Shown here in pieces: positions 16,840 to 34,847 of a stretch of 64,000 bases of DNA. A program made the translations under genes and the position numbers. How positions within the stretch are numbered: position 1 is the first letter of the stretch; each line of letters begins with the position of its first letter. Below the pieces are notes generated by a model, which saw only the letters and a program-made list of their open reading frames with translations, was not told the DNA's origin and searched no databases. This DNA is from Taeniopygia guttata (Eukaryota): contig NC_133041.1 in assembly GCF_048771995.1 (NCBI RefSeq), positions 4,727,324-4,791,323 on the forward strand. The letters are read 5' to 3'.

Positions 16840-19800
16840 TCCCAGAAATTCACCCCAAAAAAATCAACCAAAAAAAATCCCAAATTCCCAGAAATTTACC
16901 CCGAAAAAATCAACCAAAAAAAAAAATCCCAAATTCCCAGAAATTCACCCCAAAAAATCAAACAAAAAAATTCCCCAAAATTCCAAAAATTCACCCCGAA
17001 AAAATCCACCCTAAAAATCCCAAAATCCCAGAAATTCACCCCAAAAAAATCAACCAAAAAATTCCCCCAAAATCCCAGAAATTCACCCCAAAAAAATCCA
17101 CCCTAAAAATCCCAAAAACCTGAAATTTCTGCCCAAAAAATTCACCCTGAAAATCTCAAAATCCTGAAATATCACCCCGAAAAAATCAACCAAAAAATTC
17201 CCCAAAATCCCAGAAATTCACCCCAAAAAAATCAACCAAAAAATTCCCCAAAATTCAAAAAATTCACCCCCAAAAAATCAACCAAAAAAATCCCAAATTC
17301 CCAGAAATTCACCCCAAAAAAATCAACTAAAAAATTCCCCCAAAATCCCAGAAATTCATCCCGAAAAAATCAAACAAAAAATTCCCCAAAATCCCAGAAA
17401 TTCACCCCAAAAAATCAACCAAAAAAAAAAATCCCAAAATCCCGGAAATTCACCCCAAAAAAATCAACCAAAAAAATAACCCCAAAATCCCAGAAATTAA
17501 CCCCGAAAATATCCACCCTAAAAATCCCAAAAACCTGAAATTTCTGCCCAAAAAATCCACCCTGAAAATCTCAAAATCCCAAAAATTTGCCCCCAAAAAT
17601 CAACCAAAAGATTCCCCAAAATCCCAGAAATTCACCCAAAAAAAATCAACCCTGAAAATCCCAAATTCCCAGAAAATCACCCCTAAAAAAAAATCCACCC
17701 TAAAAATCCCAAAATCCTGAAAATTCACCCCAAAAAAATCCCCAAATTCCAAAAATTCACCCCAAAAAAATCAACCAAAAAAAAAATCCCAAAATCCTGG
17801 AAATTCACCCCAAAAAAATCAACCAAAAAATTCCCCAAATCCTGAAAATTCACCCAAAAAAATTCCCCAAATTCCAGGAAATCACCCCGAAAAAATCCAC
17901 CCTAAGAATCCCAAAAACCTGAAATTTCTGCCCAAAAAATTCACCCTGAAAATCTAAAAATTCCAAAAATTCACCCCCAAAAATCAACCACAAAATTCCC
18001 CAAAATCCCAGAAATTCACCCCAAAAAAATCAACCAAAAAATTCCCCAAATCCTGAAAATTCACCCCGAAAAAATCAAACAAAAAATTCCCCCAAATCCC
18101 AGAAATTCACCCCAAAAAAATCAACTAAAACAAAAGATCCCAAAATCCCAGAAATTCACCCCAAAAAAATCAACCAAAAAAACCCCAAATTCCCAGAAAA
18201 TCACCCCGAAAAAATTCCACCCTAAAAATCCCAAAAACCTGAAATTTCAGCCCAAAAATTTCAGCCTGAAAATCTCAAAATCCCAGAAATTCACCCTGAA
18301 AAAAATCAACTTTAAAAGTCCCAAAATGCCGGAAAATCAACCCAAAAATATCCATTTTTAAAATCCCCAAATCCTGAAAATTCACCCAGAAAAAAAATCC
18401 ACCCTAAAAATCACAAACTCTCAGAAATTCACCCTAAAAAATCAACTTCAGAAATCCCAAAATCCTGAAAATTCACCCCAAAAAAAATCCACCCTAAAAA
18501 CCCCCAAAATCTCAGAAATTCACCCCAAAATTCCGGAAATTCACCCTCAAAAAAATCCACCCTAAAAATCCCCAAATCCTGGAAAATCAACACAAAAAAT
18601 GTTGCCCGTACTGGTTTGTACTGGTTTGTACTGGTTTATACTGGTTTATACTGGTTTTTACTGGTTTATACTGGTTCATACTGGTTCATACTGGTTTTAC
18701 GGGTATATATTGGTTTTTACTGGTTTATACTGGTTTTTACTGGTTTTTACTGGTTTTTCCGGGTCTGTACTAGTTCATACTGGTTTATACTGGTTTGTAT
18801 CAATCCATACTGGTTCATACTGGTTTATACTGGTTTATACTGGTCCGTACTGGTCCATACTGGTTTATACTGGTTTCTATGGATTTCTACGGCGGTTTTT
18901 TGGGTCCATACTGGTTTATACTGGTTTATACTGGTTTGTATCAATCCCTACTGGTCTGTAGTGGTCCATACTGGTTTATACTGGTTCATACTGGTTTATA
19001 CTGGTTTCTATCAATCCATACTGGTCCTTACTGGTCCTTACTGGTTTTTACTGGTCCCAGTCCCTGCGCCGGCGCGGTGGGCGGAGCCTCTCCGGGTATT
19101 TCCTGGCCGGACGCAGCATGACCTGGGCCCCGGTGAGTTTTTATACTGGTTTGTACTGGTTTGTACTGGTTTGGACTGGTTTGGACTGGTTTGGACTGGT
19201 TTGGACTGGTTTTATACTGGTTTGGACTGGTTTGTACTGGTTTGTACTGGGAGGGACTCAGAGGGAACTGGTTTATACTGGGAATGGAGGGATCACCTTG
19301 GGGTCACTCATTGATCACTCAGGGGTCACTCAGGGTCACTCAGGGTCACTCAGGGTCACTCATTGGTCACTCATTGGTCACTCAGGGTCACTCAGGGGTC
19401 ACTCAGGGGTCACTCAGGGGTCACTCATTGGTCACTCATTGGTCACTCAGGGTCACTCAGGGGTCACTCATTGGTCACTCAGGGGTCACTCAAGGGTCAC
19501 TCATTGGTCACTCAGGGGTCACTCAGGGGTCACTCAGGGGTCACTCAGGGGTCACTCAGCGGTCACTCAGGGGTCACTCAGGGGTCACTCAGGGGTCACT
19601 CATTGGTCACTCAGGGGTCACTCAGGGTCACTCAGGGGTCACTCAGGGGTCACTCAGGGGTCACTCATTGGTCACTCAGGGGTCCCTCAGGGGTCACTCA
19701 GGGGTCACTCAGGGGTCACTCAGGGTCACTCAGGGTCACTCATTGGTCACTCAGGGGTCACTCATTGGTCACTCATTGAGGGTCACTCAGGGTCACTCAG

Positions 19801-20160
19801 GGGTCACTCAGGGTCACTCAGGGTCACTCATTGATCACTCATTGGTCACTCCGTTGGTCACTCAGGGTCACTCAGGGTCACTCAGGGTCACTCAGGGGTC
19901 ACTCAGGGGTCACTCGGGGTCACTCAGGGGTCACTCAGGGGTCACTCGGGGTCACTCAGGGGTCACTCATTGGTCACTCATTGGTCACTCAGGGGTCACT
20001 CAGGGGTCACTCAGGGGTCACTCAGGGGTCACTCATTGGTCACTCATTGGTCACTCAGGGGTCACTCAGGGGTCACTCAGGGTCACTCAGGGGTCACTCA
20101 GGGGTCACTCAGGGGTCACTCAGGGTCACTCAGGGGTCACTCAGGGTCACTCAGGGGTCA
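16840..20160. repeat. SLC5A2 intron 1 and intron 2 satellites: a roughly 44-bp unit aaaaatcaaccaaaaaattccccaaaatcccagaaattcacccc (16840-18600), a 10-bp ctggtttata satellite (18600-19060), and a 10/11-bp ggtcactcagg satellite (19290-20160)
   Basis: Direct periodicity. The ctggtttata family recurs throughout the window in both orientations. Confidence 0.9.
19061..19132 (+). CDS. SLC5A2: SLC5A2 exon 2; encodes [24 protein letters not shown]
   Basis: Acceptor cccag, donor gtgagt. Matches SGLT2 [24 protein letters not shown]. Confidence 0.85.
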
Positions 20161-20173
20161 CTCTCTGTCCCAG

Positions 20174-20278
20174 GTCGGGGCCTCTCTCTTCGCCAGCAAT
20201 ATCGGCTCCGGTCACTTCGTGGGTCTGGCCGGGACGGGCGCCGCGGGCGGCATCGCCGTGGGCGGCTTCGAGTGGAGC
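20174..20278 (+). CDS. SLC5A2: SLC5A2 exon 3; encodes [35 protein letters not shown]
   Basis: Acceptor ctgtcccag, donor gtgagt. This is the SLC5 (sodium:solute symporter) signature region and is near-identical to SGLT1 and SGLT2. Confidence 0.92.
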
Positions 20279-20282
20279 GTGA

Positions 20283-20470
20283 GTCGCGATATATGTCGCG
20301 ATATGCCGCGATATGTCGCGATATCTGCCGCGATATGTCGCGATATGCCGCGATAGGGCGCGATATGTCGCGGTACCGCGACATATCGCGCCCTATCGCG
20401 GCATATCGCGACATATCGCGGCCCCCCCGCTGCTTCTATCGCGAGATTTGCCGTCCTTAAACACGCCCTG
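20283..20470. repeat. Near-perfect palindrome of about 90 bp centred on GGTACC (about 20373-20378) in SLC5A2 intron 3. It is built from CpG-rich 9/10-bp units TGTCGCGATA, which equal the ZBED1/hDREF consensus TGTCG(C/T)GA(C/T)A
   Basis: The left arm gcgatatgccgcgatagggcgcgatatgtcgc is the exact reverse complement of the right arm gcgacatatcgcgccctatcgcggcatatcgc. More TATCGCGATA units follow at 20480-20590. Confidence 0.85.
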
Positions 20471-20600
20471 TTGGTTCTATCGCGATATATCGGCGCCATC
20501 TTGTGGCCGTTCCGCGGTATTGCCTCACCCGGGTTTGGCCACGCCCCTCTATCGCGATATTGGCCACGCCCCTATCGCGACATGGCCCCTCCCCCCACAG

Positions 20601-20660
20601 GGAATGTTCATTGTGCTGTTGCTGGGCTGGGTGTTCGTGCCGATCTACATGAGAGCGGGG
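20601..20660 (+). CDS. SLC5A2: SLC5A2 exon 4; encodes GMFIVLLLGWVFVPIYMRAG
   Basis: Acceptor ccccccacag, donor gtgaga. Matches SGLT2 [20 protein letters not shown]. Confidence 0.9.
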
Positions 20661-21339
20661 GTGAGACTGGTTTATACTGGTTTATACTGGGAGGGACTGG
20701 GAGGGACTGGGAGGGAACTGGGAGGGGACTGGGTTATACTGGTTTATACTGGGAGGGAGCTGGGAGGGAACTGGGTTATACTGGGAGGGACTGGGAGGGA
20801 ACTGGGTTATACTGGGAGGGACTGGGAGGGACTGGGAGGGGACTGGGAATGAACTGGGTTATACTGGTTTATACTGGGAGGGAGCTGGGAGGGAACTGGG
20901 TTATACTGGGAGGGACTGGGAGGGAACTGGTTTATACTGGGACGGACTGGGATGGACTGGGAATGGACTGGGTTATACTCGTTTATACTGGGAGGGACTG
21001 GGAGGGAACTGGGAGGGGACTGGGACAAACTGGGACAAACTGGGAGGGACTGGGAGGGGACTGGGAACGGAGTGGTTTATACTGGTTTATACTGGGAGGG
21101 ACTGGGAGGGAGCTGGGAGGGACTGGGACAAACTGGGACAAACTGGGAGGGACTGGGAATGGACTGGGTTATACTGGTTTTTACTGGGAGGGACTGGGAG
21201 GGGACTGGGACAAACTGGGAGGGACTGGGAATGAACTGAGTTATACTGGTTTATACTGGGAGGGACTGGGCGTGGCTTAGTGAGGGGTGGGCATGTCTCG
21301 GTCCCGGGTGGGCGTGGTCTGAGCGAGGGGCGTGGCCAG

Positions 21340-21599
21340 GTGAGCACCATGCCCGAGTACCTGGGGCGGGTGGGCGTGGTCTGATGGGGTGGGCGTGGTC
21401 TGAGCCCGGTGGGCGTGGCCAGGTGAGCACCATGCCCGAGTACCTGGGGCGGGTGGGCGTGGTCTGAGCCCGGTGGGCGTGGCCAGGTGAGCACCATGCC
21501 CGAGTACCTGGGGCGGGTGGGCGTGGCCCAGGGAAGGGTGGGCGTGGTCTGACCGGTGGGCGTGGCCAGGTGAGCACCATGCCCGAGTACCTGGGGCGG
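21340..21599 (+). other. Four decoy copies of the SLC5A2 exon 5 acceptor plus its first 30 nt (ggccag|GTGAGCACCATGCCCGAGTACCTGGGGCGG|gtgggc) at 21340-21369, 21423-21452, 21487-21516 and 21570-21599, inside a repeat of 60-90 bp immediately upstream of the real exon 5 (21671)
   Basis: Each copy has an AG acceptor, a 30-nt in-frame segment ([10 protein letters not shown]) and a downstream GT. Only the last copy continues into the real exon sequence (cgcttcggggg...). Confidence 0.85.
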
Positions 21600-27138: not shown

Positions 27139-27307
27139 GTGGGACTGGGTTATACTGGGAGGGACTGGGAGGGACTGGGAGGGACTGGGAACAAACTGGG
27201 TTATACTGGGAGGGACTGGGAGGGACTGGGAGGGACTGGGAGGGGACTGGAGGGGACTGGGTTATACTGGGAGGGGACTGGGAGGGACTGGGAGGGACTG
27301 GGAGGGA

Positions 27308-28193
27308 CTGGGAATCATCTTGGGCTGGTACTGGTGCACTGACCAGGTGGGACTGGTTTATACTGGGAGGCACTGGGAGGGACTGGGAACAAACTGGGTT
27401 ATACTGGGAGGGACTGGGTTATACTGGGAGTGGACTGGGAGGCACTGGGAGGCACTGGGTTATACTGGAAGGGAACTGGGAAGGAGCACTGGGCTGTAAC
27501 TGGGAGCACTGGGAGTGACTGGGAGCACTGGGAGCACTGGGTTATACTGGGAGCACTGGGTTATACTGGGTTGTACTGGGTTGTACTGGGTTATACTGGG
27601 TTATACTGGGAGCACTGGGACCTGCCCTGGCCCGGGCTGGTGCTGGGACTGGGAATCATCTCGGGCTGGTACTGGTGCACCAACCAGGTGGGACTGGGTT
27701 ATACTGGGAGGCACTGGGAGGGACTGGGAACAAACTAGGTTGTACTGGGAGGGACTGGGAGGGGACTGGAGGGGACTGGGTTATACTGGGAGGGACTGGG
27801 AGGGACTGGGAGGGGACTGGGAGGGACTGGGAGGGACTGGGAGGGACTTGGAGGGGACTGGGAGGCAGTGGGTTATACTGGGTTATACTGGGTTATACTG
27901 GGAGTGGACTGGGAGGCACTGGGTTATACTGGGAGGGGACTGGGAGGCACTGGGTTATACTGGGAGGGGACTGGGAAGGAGCACTGGGCTGTAACTGGGA
28001 GCACTGGGGTGTAACTGGTCTGTAACTGGGAGCACTGGGAGTGACTGGGAGCACAGGGAGCACTGGGTTATACTGGGAGAGACTGGGAGCACTGGGTTAT
28101 ACTGGGTTATACTGGGAGCACTGGGACCTGCCCTGGCCCGGACTGGTGCTGGGGCTGGGAATCATCTCGGGCTGGTACTGGTGCACCGACCAG
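27308..28193 (+). other. Three partial copies of the SLC5A2 exon 8 3' end with an intact donor (…GGAATCATCTCGGGCTGGTACTGGTGCACCGACCAG|gtgggactgg) at about 27308-27346, 27619-27687 and 28125-28193, within intron 8
   Basis: The second and third copies also carry the upstream coding segment GACCTGCCCTGGCC. Confidence 0.85.
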
Positions 28194-30161
28194 GTGGGAC
28201 TGGGTTATACTGGGAGGGACTGGGAGGCACTGGGAGGGGACTGGGAGGGACTAGGAGGGGACTGGGAGGCACTGGGTTATACTGGGTTATACTGGGAGGG
28301 GACTGGGAGGGACTGGGATAGACTGGGAGGGGACTGGGAAGGAGCACTGGGCTGTAACTGGGAGCACTGGGAGTGACTGGGAGCACTGGGTTATACTGGG
28401 AGCACTGGGTTATACTGGGTTATACTGGGAGCACTGGGTTATACTGGGTTATACTGGGAGGGACTGGGAAGGAGCACTGGGCTGTAACTGGGAGCACTGG
28501 TCTCTAACTGGTCCCACCAGTCTCTAACTGGTCTCTAACTGGCCTCTAACTGGTCCCACCAGTGTCTAACTGGTCTCTAACTGGTCTCTAACTGGTCCCA
28601 CCAGTGTCTAACTGGTCTCTAACTGGTCTCTAACTGGTCCCACCTGCTCTAACTGGTCTCTAACTGGTCTCTAACTGGTCCCACCTGCTCTAACTGGTCT
28701 CTAACTGGTCCCACCAGTCTCTAACTGGTATCTAACTGGTCTCTAACTGGTCTCTAACTGGTCTCTAACTGGTCCCACCAGTCTCTAACTGGTTTCTAAC
28801 TGGTCCCTAACTGGTCTGTAACTGGTCCCACCAGTCTCTCACTGGTTTCTAACTGGTCTCTAACTGGTCCCACCAGTCTCTAACTGGTCTCTAACTGGTC
28901 CCACCAGTCCCTAACTGGTCTCTAACTGGTCCCTAACTGGTCTCTAACTGGTCCCTAACTGGTCTCTAACTGGTCCCACCAGTCTCTAACTGGTCTCTAA
29001 CTGGTCCCACCAGTCTCTAACTGGTCCCTAACTGGTCCCTAACTGGTCTCTGACTGGTCCCACCAGTCTCTAACTGGTTTCTAACTGGTTTCCCACCAGT
29101 CTCTAACTGGTCCCTAACTGGTCCCTAACTGGTCTCTGACTGGTCCCACCAGTCTCTAACTGGTCTCTAACTGGTCTCTAACTGGTCCCACCAGTCTCTA
29201 ACTGGTCTCTAACTGGTCTGTAACTGGTCCCACCAGTCTCTAACTGGTCTCTAACTGGTCCCACCAGTCTCTAACTGGTCTCTAACTGGTCTCTAACTGG
29301 TCCCACCAGTCTCTCACTGGTCTCTAACTGGTCCCTAACTGGTCTCTAACTGGTCCCACCAGTCTCTAACTGGTCTCTAACTGGTCCCACCAGTCCCTAA
29401 CTGGTCCCACCAGTCCCTAACTGGTTTCTAACTGGTTTCTAACTGGTCTCTAACTGGTCTGTAACTGGTCCCACCAGTCTCTAACTGGTCCCTAACTGGT
29501 TTCTAACTGGTCTCTAACTGGTCCCACCAGTCTCTAACTGGTCCCTAACTGGTCTGTAACTGGTCCCACCAGTCTCTAACTGGTCCCTAACTGGTTTCTA
29601 ACTGGTCTCTAACTGGTCCCACCAGTGTCTAACTGGTCTCTAACTGGTCTCTAACTGGTCTCTAACTGGTCCTACCAGTCTCTAACTGGTCTCTAACTGG
29701 TCTGTAACTGGTCCCACCAATCTCTAACTGGTCCCACCAGTCTCTAACTGGTCTCTAACTGGTCTGTAACTGGTCCCACCAGTCTCTAACTGGTCTCTAA
29801 CTGGTCTCTAACTGGTCCCACCAGTCCCTAACTGGTCCCTAACTGGTATGTAACTGGTCTGTAACTGGTCCCTAACTGGTCTCTAACTGGTCCCACCAGT
29901 CTCTAACTGGTCTCTAACTGGTCCCTAACTGGTCCCACCAGTCTCTAACTGGTCTCTAACTGGTCTGTAACTGGTCCCACCAGTCTCTAACTGGTCTCTA
30001 ACTGGTCCCACCAGTCTCTAACTGGTCCCACCAGTCTCTAACTGGTCTCTAACTGGTCCCACCAGTCCCTAACTGGTCCCTAACTGGTCTGTAACTGGTC
30101 CCACCAGTCCCTAACTGGTCTCTAACTGGTCCCTAACTGGTCTCTGACTGGTCCCTCCCAG

Positions 30162-31351: not shown

Positions 31352-32830
31352 GTAATTAATGACCCCTAATTAGCGCTCATTAATTATTCATGAGCCATTA
31401 TTAGTGATTTATTAGTTATTATTAGCGATTATTAGCGATTATTAGCGATTATCAGTGATTATTAGTGATCCTTAGTACCGACCTATCCCCGGCTGGTGCT
31501 CAGCCTGCTGCCCCCCGGTAATTAATGACCCCTAATTAGCGCTCATTAATTATTCATGAGCCATTATTAGTGATTTATTCGTGATTATTAGCGATTATTA
31601 GTGATTATCAGCGATTATCGGTGATTATTAGTGATCATTAGTACCGACCTATCCCCGGCTGGTGCTCAGCCTGCTGCCCCCCGGTAATTAATTATGCATA
31701 ATTAGCTCTCATTAATTATTCATGAGCGATTATTTGTGATTTATTAGCGATTATTAGTGATTATTAGCAATTATTATTGATAATTAGTGATCATTAGTAC
31801 CGACCTATCCCCAGCTGGTGCTCAGCCTGCTGCCCCCCGGTAATTAATTACCCCTAATTAGTGCTCATTAATTATTCATGAGCGATTATTAGTGATTTAT
31901 TAGCTCCAATTAGCGATTATGAAGTACTATTAGCGGTTATTAGTTCATTAATAATGCTAATTAGTGATTTATTCGTGATTCTTCATTATTAGATCATAAT
32001 TAGTGATTATTAGCGATTAATTACTGATTATTAGCCATCAATAATTAATTTTTACGAATTATCTGTAATTATTACCTTATTTTTGAGGCTATTAATTCGA
32101 ATTTTGGGCTAATAAGGAGCAATTAAAACTAATAATTAATTAGTAATTCTAATTTGGGGGCTAATAACGCTAATTAGGGGCTAATTTGTGCATTATTAGG
32201 ACAATTAATTAGCTATTAATCCTAATTTGGGGTTAATAATTCAATTTTTGGGTCTAATAACTCCATTTTTTGGCCGATTTTCGCAGTTTTTTCACTAATT
32301 TTCACTGGGTTTTCGCCAATAATTAATATTAATTAATAATTAATAATTATTTCGGGCTAATAATTCAAATTTTGGTCCTAATAACTCCATTTTTGGTCCT
32401 AATAATTCGATTTTTGGGCTAATAACTCCATTTTTTGGCCGATTTTCGCCCTTTTTTTGCCGATTTTCGCCATTCTTTCACCATTATTTATTATTACTTA
32501 ATAATTAATTATTAATTTTGGGCTAATAACTCTAATTATGATCCTAATAACTCTAATTATGATCCTAATAATTCAATTTTTGGGTCTAATAATTCCACTT
32601 TTTGGCCGATTTTCGCCATTTTTTCACCAATTTTCACCATTCTTTCACCGCTAATTAATATTAATTACTAATTAATAATTATTTCGGGCTAATGATTCAA
32701 ATTTCAGTGCCAATAACTCCATTTTTGGCCCTAATAATCCCATTTTTGGGGCTAATAACTCCATTTTTTGGCTGATTTTCGCCGTTTTTTCGCCGATTTT
32801 CGCCATTTTTTTTGCTAATTAACGCTAATT
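31352..32830. repeat. SLC5A2 intron 10: a tandem repeat of about 160 bp that includes the exon 10 3' end and its donor (31352-32100), then an AT-rich higher-order repeat of about 190 bp (ggctaataactccattttttggccgattttcgcc..., 32100-32830)
   Basis: Direct periodicity. Confidence 0.85.
31479..31839 (+). other. Three copies of the SLC5A2 exon 10 3' end plus donor (CGACCTATCCCCGGCTGGTGCTCAGCCTGCTGCCCCCCG|gtaattaa) at about 31479-31517, 31643-31683 and 31801-31839, inside the 160-bp repeat of intron 10
   Basis: The real exon 10 ends at 31351 with the same 39 nt and donor. Confidence 0.85.
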
Positions 32831-32840
32831 AATTAATTAG

Positions 32841-32991: not shown

Positions 32992-33868
32992 GTGGGCACG
33001 GCTGGGGGCACCTGGGGGCACCTGGGGGCACCTGGGATACACCTGGGCACACCTGGGATACACCTGGGCATGGTTAAACACACGTGGGCACACCTGAAAT
33101 ACACCTGAGATACACCTGGGGGCACCTGGGGGTACCTAAAATACACCTGGGCACACCTGAGATACACCTGAGATACACCTGGGCACAGCTGGGGGCACCT
33201 AAAATACACCTGGGCATGGCTGGGGGCACCTGGGATACACCTGGGCACACCTGGACACACCTGGGCACACCTGGGCATGGTTAAACACACCTGAGATACA
33301 CCTGGGCACACCTGGGATAGACCTGGGCACACCTGGGGCACACCTGGGCACACCTAAAACACACCTGGGCACACCTGGGCACAGCTGGGCACACCTGAGA
33401 CACACCTGGGATAGACCTGGGCACACCTGGGGGATATTTTGGGCACACCTGGGCGCACCTGGGCATGGCCAGGGGCACCTGGGGGCATGCCTGGGCACAC
33501 CTAAAATACACCTGGGCACACCTGGGCACGCCTGGGGCACACCTGGGCACGGCTGAGTGCACCTGGGGGTACATGGAGCACACCTGGGGCACACCTGGGC
33601 ACACCTGGGGCACACCTGGGCACACCTGGGCACACCTGGGGCACACCTGGGCACACCTGGGCACACCTGGGCATGGTTTAACACACCTGGGGCACACCTG
33701 GGCACACCTGGGATAGACCTGGGCATGGTTTAACACACCTGGGGCACACCTGGGACACACCTGGGCACACCTGGGGGATATTTTGGGCACACCTGGGCAC
33801 ACCTGGGGGATATTTTGGGCACACCTGGGCGCACCTGGGCACACAGGTGACCCCTCCCCTGCCCGCAG

Positions 33869-33940
33869 GCTGTGGGTGGTGGCCATGGTGGGGCTGAGCC
33901 TGGCCTGGCTGCCGGTGCTGCGGGCGGCGCGGGGGGCGCA
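33869..33940 (+). other. Truncated upstream duplicate of SLC5A2 exon 12 (acceptor plus the first about 72 nt: [23 protein letters not shown]) that runs straight into the acacctgggc satellite
   Basis: Identical to 34848-34919, including the cccctgcccgcag acceptor. No in-frame donor follows. Confidence 0.8.
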
Positions 33941-34847
33941 CCTGGGCACACCTGGGCACACCTGGGCACACCTACAATACACCTGGGCACACCTGGGCAC
34001 ACCTGGGCACACCTGGGCACACCTGGGCACACCTGGGCATGGCCGGGGGCACCTGGGGCACACCTGGGCATGGTTAAACACACCTGGGATACACCTGAGA
34101 TACACCTGGGCACAGCTGGGCACACAGGTGACCTCAGGTGGCCCCGGGTGATCTCAGGTGACCTCAAGGGACCCAAATTTGGGGTTCTCAGGTGTCCAAA
34201 AACCCAAAATTTGAGCTGCAGGTGACCTTGAAGGACTCAAATTTTTGGGTTCTGGAGGTCCTGGAGATCCCAAATTTTTTGGGGGTGATCCCGGCTGACC
34301 CCGGGTGACCCCAGGTGAGCTCAGGTGTCCAAGTGACCTTGAAGGACCCAAATTTGGGTCATTCCAAGTGTCCAAAAACCCCAAATTTGAGATCCTGGTG
34401 ACCAAATTTTGGGTTTTTGACCTCAAAATGACCCCGAATTTTTTGGGGGTGACCCCGGCTGACCCTGGTTGACGTCAGGTGACCCCGGCTGACCTCAGGT
34501 GTCCAAGTGACCTTGAAGGACCCAAAATTGGGTCATTCCAAGTGGCCAAAAACCCAAAATTTGAGCTGCAGGAGACCATGAAGGACCCAAATTTTGGGTT
34601 TTTGACCTCCAAACGACCCCGAATTTTTTGGGGGTGACCCCGGCTGACCCCGGGTGACCCCAGGTGACCTCGGGTATCCAAGTGACCTTGAAGGACCCAA
34701 ATTTGAGCTTCTCAAGTGTCCAAAAACCCCAAAATTTCAGCTCCGGGTGACCTCAAACTCCCCAAATTTTGGGTTTTTGACCTCAAAATGACCCCGAATT
34801 TTTTGGGGGTGACCCCGTCTGACCCCGCTGACCTCCCCTGCCCGCAG

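Follow-up and report, generated by a model that had tools for sequence, protein, structure and literature searches.

The palindrome described here lies in the third intron of an SLC5A2-like gene of the zebra finch. Within the 64-kb window, as we call the whole stretch of DNA analysed, this gene, on the + strand, could be modelled as 15 exons spanning 16733-41911, all junctions having AG/GT and the frame being open over 620 codons; an SGLT1 probe sequence served to locate the exons and for nothing else. A protein search matched the 620-aa product at 99% identity to 'sodium/glucose cotransporter 2-like [Taeniopygia guttata]'; among solved structures human SGLT2 fitted it best, ahead of SGLT1. 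An earlier note on this DNA had assigned the palindrome to SLC5A2 intron 3, an assignment that the exon model, the protein identity and the structural match all bear out. The downstream neighbour in the orthologous loci carries a UVB_sens_prot (RUS1) domain, and SLC5A2-RUSF1 is also the gene order in human. The parts of the gene model that concern us are:

20174..20278, + strand: exon 3, 105 nt, VGASLF...GGFEWS (gene model)
20279..20600, + strand: intron 3, 322 nt (AG/GT gene model, CpG counts)
20601..20660, + strand: exon 4, 60 nt, GMFIVLLLGWVFVPIYMRAG (gene model)

At 322 nt, intron 3 is the shortest intron of the gene. It contains 47 CpG dinucleotides at a GC content of 0.60 and a CpG observed/expected ratio of 1.64; most other introns of the gene have ratios of 0.02-0.8, intron 10 reaching 1.25. 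By the criteria of Gardiner-Garden and Frommer a CpG island has at least 200 bp, a GC content of at least 0.5 and an observed/expected ratio of at least 0.6, and by length, GC content and ratio (322 nt, 0.60, 1.64) the whole intron falls within this definition. The repeat finder showed every intron of the gene to be filled with tandem repeats of 10-11-nt periods, and repeat arrays of the gene contain partial extra copies of its exons 5, 8 and 12.

A perfect palindrome within a minisatellite

CGCG-type repeats cover intron 3 nearly end to end, most of it in periods of 10, 20 and 22-23 nt, the periods in neighbouring introns being 10 and 11 nt. The 5' part of the intron holds the following features:

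20283..20422, + strand: minisatellite with a 10-nt period (20-nt higher order), unit ATATGTCGCG / ATATGCCGCG (TRF and repeat family)
20327..20374, + strand: left arm of the palindrome (repeat finder; unit orientation compared with Poecile)
20375..20422, + strand: right arm of the palindrome, the exact reverse complement of the left arm

The minisatellite, whose unit is a CGCGATAT-type 10-mer, begins 5 nt into the intron at GTGAGTCGCGATA and was reported by TRF as two stretches, 20291-20372 (periods 10 and 20) and 20377-20420 (period 10). The repeat finder placed the perfect palindrome at 20327-20422 of the window. It is 96 bp long, with two arms of 48 nt and a spacer of 0 nt, and is centred on GGTACC at 20372-20377, the arms joining at 20374|20375. 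The earlier note had described an inverted repeat of about 90 bp with essentially no spacer, centred on GGTACC at about 20375, and had made this description depend on the agreement of the two arms; these proved to be 100% complementary, so that the description stands with slightly longer arms.

A tandem array of such units is already partly its own mirror image. The array unit is about 80% self-complementary and thus a quasi-palindrome, because CGCG and ATAT are each self-complementary, and this explains the many shifted-register inverted matches of 70-88% that the repeat finder returned within the array. The perfect arms are of a different order. When same-orientation arrays were simulated from the palindrome's own units, arms were no longer than 6 nt in 2000 trials, and no other inverted repeat in the 64-kb window pairs perfectly over arms of 12 nt or more with a spacer of at most 6. 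Irregular units within the arms (GCC, AGGGCG) are mirrored exactly from one arm to the other, and the perfect arms therefore record a true orientation flip. Taken together, the zero spacer, the perfect arms and the mirrored irregular units require a single copying event. The left arm is probably the original copy, because its unit orientation (TGTCGCGATA) is that of the upstream array and also of the array in Poecile; the right arm would then be its inverted duplicate.

The potential of this sequence to form a hairpin or cruciform is predicted to be strong. Folded in silico as single-stranded DNA, the 96-mer gave a hairpin of 46 bp at -68.5 kcal/mol (z = -15.9), in keeping with the cruciform-prone character claimed for it previously, and the whole of intron 3 folded as DNA gave -110.9 kcal/mol (z = -12.7). 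As RNA, the intron is predicted to form the same perfect 46-bp stem, with an MFE of -186.7 kcal/mol and z = -14.

Motif content of intron 3

Downstream of the palindrome the intron carries further repeat units, in which the following motifs were recognized:

20437..20446, + strand: TATCGCGAGA, a frequent CGCG-element variant (motif definition PMC6192621)
20478..20487, unstranded: TATCGCGATA, a self-complementary decamer (composite unit of C-rich / TGTTGG / TTC / TATCGCGATA)
20492..20506, - strand: CTCF-like core CCACAAGATGGCGCC, with one mismatch to CCASYAGRKGGCRSY
20535..20583, + strand: two copies of GC-box-like TTGGCCACGCCCCT, each followed by TATCGCGAYA (repeat finder, period 22-23, and alignment)

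ZBED1, BANP-type, CTCF and YY1 motifs were matched as consensus strings, that for CTCF being CCASYAGRKGGCRSY. There are 11 copies of the octamer TATCGCGA in the 64-kb window against 0.07 expected, all of them within 20284-20582, and it recurs in three unit contexts of the intron: units of the 5' array, composite units with a CTCF-like core, and units with a GC box. Across the same window the hDRE consensus TGTCGYGAYA has five exact matches against 0.01 expected. The palindrome had been described as built of hDREF/ZBED1 units, which is correct for the two of the five exact matches that lie inside it; the other units there are the near-variants TGCCGCGATA, GGGCGCGATA and TGTCGCGGTA. Further units had been said to continue to 20590, 10 bp from exon 4. 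Units do follow the palindrome, the last of them ending at 20582, 18 nt before the exon. This last copy, CCCCTATCGCGACAT (20569-20583), lies 18 nt upstream of the 3' splice site and is aligned with the same motif in four of the five other passerines.

The exact canonical CGCG element TCTCGCGAGA is absent from the 64-kb window. Only the site at 20437-20446 comes within one mismatch of it, and 11 of 100 shuffles of the window also gave such a site. Two TATCGCGATA decamers are present in intron 3, and the composite unit to which they belong is common to other passerines. On the + strand a degraded TCGCGA-type unit, TTCCGCGGTATTG, comes after the CTCF-like core, and the site at 20492..20506 contains a YY1-like CGCCATCTT on that strand as well. 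GCGCCATCTTG can be read as a YY1 site; the same bases fit the CTCF-like core that is common to other passerines, and neither reading was chosen. As strings, the matches to hDRE/ZBED1, the CGCG element and the CTCF-like core are real, and the sites that they represent are putative. No paper containing CTATCGCGACAT was found in the collection searched, and the top-ranked papers with shorter strings were not about this motif in birds. A search with the translated intron and exon 4 as query found no echo of the array among 5.8 billion predicted proteins.

Orthologous introns

SLC5A2 loci were compared from Poecile, Haemorhous, Sylvia, Aphelocoma, Zonotrichia and Oenanthe and from budgerigar, seriema and ostrich, with exons 3 and 4 located by tblastn; Oenanthe was left out, its assembly being without exons 1-4. 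The amino acids of exon 3 are 100% identical in four of the five other passerines, in seriema and in budgerigar, and 97% identical in ostrich; the exon 3 match in Poecile is split by an apparent assembly frameshift. The palindrome was not found in intron 3 of Poecile, Haemorhous, Sylvia, Aphelocoma, Zonotrichia, Cariama, Struthio or Melopsittacus, where the longest perfect arms were 5-11 nt, and among the nine species sampled it is therefore present in zebra finch only. This comparison, with the palindrome absent from five passerines and three non-passerines, rests on species that are not close relatives of zebra finch, and the arrays are too diverged for alignment unit by unit.

The repeat family itself is more widely shared. 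In the five informative passerines the TATCGCGA/TCGCGATA octamer is present in 7, 17, 13, 75 and 5 copies, all inside intron 3; outside this intron there are 0 copies at the zebra finch and the five passerine loci (23-64 kb each), and the octamer is absent from the parrot, seriema and ostrich loci. Passerine intron 3 ranges from 322 to 2187 nt in length. Its 5' part is an array of CGCGATA-type units whose form and length are species-specific, its middle contains AGCGCCCCCTGCTGG-NNC-TRTCGCGATATTG units, and its 3' part has units that join a GC box to TATCGCGACAT, one of which is aligned just upstream of the acceptor in five of the six species. Exact matches to the CTCF consensus number seven in 325 kb; four of these lie in passerine intron 3, all in one orientation (Haemorhous, Sylvia and Aphelocoma). 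In the three non-passerines intron 3 consists of a minisatellite poor in CpG and rich in C, whose type is CCCCCATAG, CCCCATTGA or CCCCAGATAC. In Haemorhous the units GCCGCCATAG/GCCGCGATAG have a form intermediate to the Cariama (seriema) unit GCCCCCCATAG, which suggests the evolution in situ of an old avian minisatellite and not the insertion of an element.

As a control, the dominant 9-mers of introns 1, 2, 5, 8 and 13 were looked for and found in the passerine orthologues and not in the non-passerines. In the sequences compared, retention of an intron-specific repeat unit among passerines thus appears as the norm for most introns of the gene, and since the units of other introns are equally passerine-conserved, their retention in intron 3 needs no special explanation. 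Confinement of TATCGCGA to passerines, and to intron 3 within them, could suggest constraint, a reading rejected here because the units of other introns behave alike.

Units one CpG-decay step away from the intact form were found in the other passerines, of the TCACGA, TCATGA and TCGCAA types as well as GCCGTGATAG and GCTGTGATAG. They are many in Poecile (TCACGA, TCATGA, TCACAA), Haemorhous (GCCGTGATAG, GCTGTGATAG), Aphelocoma and Zonotrichia, the count in Aphelocoma being 23 one-step decayed copies to 39 intact, from which it follows that the arrays are not protected in other passerines. Together with the passerine-conserved units of the other introns, this decay means that conservation is no argument for function. 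No decayed CGCG unit is present in the intron 3 array of zebra finch, consistent with a recent re-expansion that would include the palindrome. The decay of the CGCG unit follows the pattern of methylated CpGs.

Repeat-filled introns of dot-chromosome genes

In the T2T genome of the zebra finch, tandem repeats are reported to make up more than 70% of dot-chromosome introns (10.1101/2025.10.17.683159), and chicken dot-chromosome genes are described as having repeat-filled introns with duplicated pieces of exons, an organization named 'sequence stuttering' (PMC12954441), with units given as 10-11 bp and multiples (PMC12954441; 10.1101/2025.10.17.683159). The gene studied here resembles the genes so described in several respects: repeats of 10-11-nt period fill its introns, the repeat families are local and intron-specific, fragments of exons are duplicated within its own arrays, its sequence is GC-rich and it belongs to the set poorly handled by older bird assemblies, and the arrays vary strongly in length and arrangement from species to species (322 nt to 2187 nt for intron 3). 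From this repeat and GC character we infer that the SLC5A2-like gene may lie on a dot chromosome. The earlier note had considered a CpG-dense palindrome next to an exon unusual; judged by these accounts, a repeat-filled intron beside an exon is normal in dot-chromosome genes (10.1101/2025.10.17.683159; PMC12954441). What distinguishes intron 3 is that its unit is CpG-dense (CGCG) and quasi-palindromic, the units of neighbouring introns being CpG-poor, and that its array underwent an orientation flip that made a perfect palindrome, a change that is not described for 'sequence stuttering' in the portions of the two sources drawn on here (PMC12954441; 10.1101/2025.10.17.683159).

Origin of the palindrome

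The explanation that we favour, with a probability of roughly 0.6, is that a minisatellite of the dot-chromosome type, filling the intron, was made into a perfect palindrome by one template switch during replication in the zebra finch lineage. The substrate would have been the quasi-palindromic CGCGATAT-type array inherited by passerines. At the fork, a nascent strand would have switched to the opposite template where GGTACC now stands, polymerization would have copied 48 nt backwards before returning, and an exact inverted copy would thereby have been added beside its source, giving the spacer-free 96-bp perfect palindrome. A simple snap-back on one strand cannot produce a palindrome without a spacer, because the loop of a hairpin needs several unpaired bases, and it is from the exclusion of snap-back by the zero spacer that we infer a switch to the opposite template and a return after 48 nt.

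Template switching in replication is reported to generate exact inverted copies beside their source and a whole perfect hairpin in one event, to act on quasi-palindromes and to leave products enriched in introns (PMC10710096; PMC8794818, PMC9435742, PMC7202029). In these same sources we find the closest likeness to the zebra finch sequence, where the exact inverted copy adjoins its source, where, as in quasipalindrome correction, the entire hairpin could have become perfectly paired in one step, and where the event is intronic, lineage-specific and placed on a pre-existing imperfect inverted repeat. It differs from the template-switch mutations described there in that arms of 48 nt are at the long end for such events and in having a tandem array as substrate where those have a unique quasi-palindrome.

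The palindrome is most likely a recent inverted duplication found in zebra finch only, a curiosity and not a new regulatory device. It is probably a young by-product of repeat instability, neutral or mildly deleterious, and not a conserved element. The resemblance to hDRE/ZBED1 and to the CGCG element is a property of the inherited repeat unit. The locus is best filed under a known phenomenon, the intronic minisatellites of dot-chromosome type, to which is added here the gain of a perfect palindrome by a probable template switch.

Several observations count against a neutral reading. The intron is CpG-island-like with no decayed CGCG unit, and germline hypomethylation or binding-site constraint would look alike; TATCGCGA stands in three unit contexts and its acceptor-side copy is intact in five of six passerines; and of the seven exact matches to the CTCF consensus in 325 kb, four lie in passerine intron 3.

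Alternative explanations

Best placed among the alternatives, and in our judgement unlikely, is that intron 3 is a functional passerine CpG island, unmethylated in the germline, in which a methyl-sensitive cluster of CGCG/hDRE sites (for ZBED1, BANP or similar) is combined with CTCF-like cores and GC boxes. It would serve for insulation, for alternative or antisense promotion of transcription or as a recombination hotspot, and both minisatellite and palindrome would be turnover products of a selected cluster. CGCG elements are BANP/Kaiso-associated elements of CpG-island promoters (PMC6192621); they drive bidirectional, methylation-sensitive transcription with an activity that rises with copy number (PMC6192621), and BANP is reported to bind unmethylated CGCG motifs (PMC11472053, PMC9363121). 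Intron 3 recalls the hDRE (TGTCGYGAYA, ZBED1/hDREF) and CGCG-element promoters in its five exact hDRE matches and one TATCGCGAGA, in a CpG-rich context of island length and composition with GC boxes nearby, and in having multiple copies of the motif, as in promoters such as DENR (PMC6192621). It differs from them in that the site is intronic, the motifs are putative and the canonical TCTCGCGAGA is absent, in that the motifs are copies of a minisatellite unit and not independent sites, and in that the units decay in sister species.

The distribution of the motifs can be read in both directions. In zebra finch the CpG ratio of 1.64, the 47 CpG and the lack of any decayed TCGCGA are what an unmethylated island would give; CpG-decayed units are, however, common in Poecile, Haemorhous, Aphelocoma and Zonotrichia. 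At all six passerine loci the motif is confined to intron 3, with 0 copies outside (23-64 kb each), but the repeat units of other introns are equally conserved among passerines. The composite AGCGCCCCCTGCTGG-NNC-TRTCGCGATATTG keeps a fixed spacing across species, although within a species shared spacing is expected simply because the copies are duplicates of one unit. The CCCCTATCGCGACAT copy by the 3' splice site, kept in five of six passerines, would fit a selected site; a constraint on the branch point or polypyrimidine tract could instead have conserved it. Occurrence of the same octamer, TATCGCGA, in three unit contexts and the common orientation of the four intron 3 matches among the seven exact CTCF-consensus matches favour a module, and against it, TCTCGCGAGA in its canonical form is absent and the single variant at one mismatch is of a kind that 11 of 100 shuffles also gave. 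The regulatory or ZBED1 importance that the earlier note implied finds no support here, the palindrome being absent from all orthologues, the CGCG units decaying and the retention of units being the norm.

A more specific version of this proposal, which we hold to be less likely again, is that SLC5A2 intron 3 would be a passerine intragenic module, unmethylated in the germline, in which paired CTCF-core and CGCG/hDRE-type sites and GC boxes are kept by minisatellite-style turnover, with content maintained as arrangement churns; its function might be that of an insulator, of an orphan bidirectional promoter or of a hotspot of recombination, on a PRDM9-less dot chromosome, and the palindrome would be its cruciform-forming variant. 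A regulatory role for the intron 3 motifs is a minority possibility.

Another possibility, and an improbable one, is that the palindrome is a local artefact of assembly or consensus, in a stretch difficult to sequence, and is carried by no bird. Dot-chromosome introns rich in non-B DNA are reported to show drops in PacBio coverage and to be missing from earlier zebra finch assemblies (10.1101/2025.10.17.683159), and a search with the translated intron found no independent zebra finch sequence. Fold-back chimeras, however, give arms on the kb scale that end a read, and the arms here are of 48 nt within colinear flanks; polishing noise cannot mirror irregular units exactly; and the remaining gene model is intact, with 15 clean exons. 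A chimeric read, which the earlier note had named as a source of doubt, appears unlikely because both flanks run colinear into exons 3 and 4 and into passerine-orthologous sequence.

It is very improbable that the hairpin is an existing or emerging small-RNA precursor (miRNA or hairpin siRNA) hosted by the intron, made by template switching and co-expressed with SLC5A2. Intronic template-switch hairpins have yielded new miRNAs in primates (PMC10710096), and the predicted RNA fold of the intron, with its 46-bp perfect stem (MFE -186.7 kcal/mol, z = -14), would be in line with this; Drosha, however, prefers a stem of about 35 bp and a loop of at least 10 nt (PMC10710096), and the stem here is perfect over 46 bp and closed by a 4-nt loop. 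Matches to miRNA precursor models in Rfam were sub-threshold and on both strands, the best scoring 40.4 bits against a gathering score of 67 and reflecting a generic hairpin shape only, and the palindrome is not conserved in orthologous introns.

Least credible of all is that the CGCG block is what remains of a transposable element that entered the passerine ancestor, for example a foldback or MITE-like hAT element with subterminal repeats like the motif of hAT-derived ZBED1. ZBED genes are reported to derive from hAT transposases (PMC3606216), the block is present in passerines and absent from parrot, seriema and ostrich, and inverted tandem short repeats recall foldback elements. Neither the 64-kb window nor about 260 kb of orthologous loci, however, contained another copy, and neither terminal inverted repeats nor a target-site duplication could be delimited; the Haemorhous units grade into the non-passerine CCCCCATAG-type unit and so favour an origin in situ; and the palindrome, present in zebra finch only among nine species, is probably not ancestral.

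Significance

If template switching did create the palindrome, the locus offers a clean natural case of a single step that turned a quasi-palindromic minisatellite into a long perfect palindrome within a transcribed gene, and it could serve as a test locus for template-switch mutagenesis, for the stability of palindromes in birds and for the accuracy with which dot-chromosome introns are sequenced and assembled. Knowledge of SGLT2 or of ZBED1 is left unchanged by it. Should the regulatory explanation be the true one, clusters of CTCF and CGCG-type motifs would be maintained through tandem-repeat turnover on songbird dot chromosomes, which would bear on the persistence of CpG islands and of recombination hotspots in species that lack PRDM9.

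Perfect palindromes without a spacer are the class considered most recombinogenic (PMC7999016), and the zebra finch sequence shares with the fragile long palindromes reviewed there both this structure, rated as carrying the highest risk, and a predicted hairpin of high stability (-68.5 kcal/mol). Breakage has been shown for palindromic AT-rich repeats and for inverted Alu pairs, in comparison with which 96 bp is much shorter (PMC7999016), and the breakage-prone palindromic AT-rich repeats are AT-rich where the zebra finch palindrome is GC-rich. For the recombinogenic class as a whole, 96 bp is a modest size.

Intron-specific minisatellite units

Each intron of the zebra finch SLC5A2-like gene is dominated by one minisatellite unit, a different one each time, and this holds for all introns of the gene (16814-41738 of the window). 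Examples are as follows.

Dominant minisatellite units of four introns
Intron 1: AAATTCACC
Intron 2: GGTCACTCA
Intron 8: TAACTGGTC
Intron 13: AAAATGGCC

The dominant units are common to the orthologous passerine loci (L001-L006) and were not found in the parrot, seriema or ostrich loci. Unit identity has therefore been kept across the sampled passerines while array length has varied several-fold.

The introns also differ in CpG content. Intron 2 carries an array of about 60 copies of an 11-nt unit, GGTCACTCAGG (19506-20163), which stops 10 nt short of the exon 3 acceptor, and its CpG observed/expected ratio is 0.05; this is sharply unlike intron 3, even though the latter lies just 105 nt downstream. 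The second CpG-retaining intron of the gene is intron 10 (31352-32840), which is AT-rich (GC 0.32) and nonetheless has a ratio of 1.25, with repeats that include CGCCGATTTTCGCC and TAATTA-type units.

An open reading frame from the Logan assemblies, P0021, encodes an exon 3 peptide that is 100% identical to that of zebra finch. The flanks of this peptide are AT-rich and unrelated (…LHLVWFLQ / VTVTLFAYIRHTVNDNK), and the source is therefore another species in which intron 3 is without the CGCG repeat.

Exon fragments and assembly quality

Extra partial copies of coding exons were observed within the intronic tandem arrays of the gene in the window.

Partial exon copies
21304-21482: exon 5, acceptor and 5' end, in a period-83 array
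27305-27349, 27619-27690 and 28125-28196: exon 8, 3' end, three extra copies
about 33741-34037: exon 12, in part

Splice-site-like flanks are present on the copies, which could serve as decoy exons. The pattern is the same as the 'exon stuttering' of chicken dot-chromosome genes (PMC12954441). Several exon-5-like copies also lie in tandem in Oenanthe (L006), an assembly from which exons 1-4 are missing, the gap adjoining a run of Ns (L006 1215-1314). In Poecile, exon 3 (L001 4385-4490) has an apparent frameshift in the assembly, with which the NCBI label 'LOW QUALITY PROTEIN' is consistent. The SLC5A2 locus is error-prone across current bird assemblies.

CTCF-like matches downstream of SLC5A2

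Exact matches to the CTCF consensus were found 1.2-1.6 kb 3' of SLC5A2 in three species, within the neighbouring RUS1/UVB_sens_prot gene.

Downstream matches
L001 (Poecile) 22274, + strand
L002 (Haemorhous) 43544, + strand
L004 (Aphelocoma) 32184, + strand

From their placement, these putative sites appear to represent one shared position, and they are oriented opposite to the CTCF-consensus sites of intron 3.
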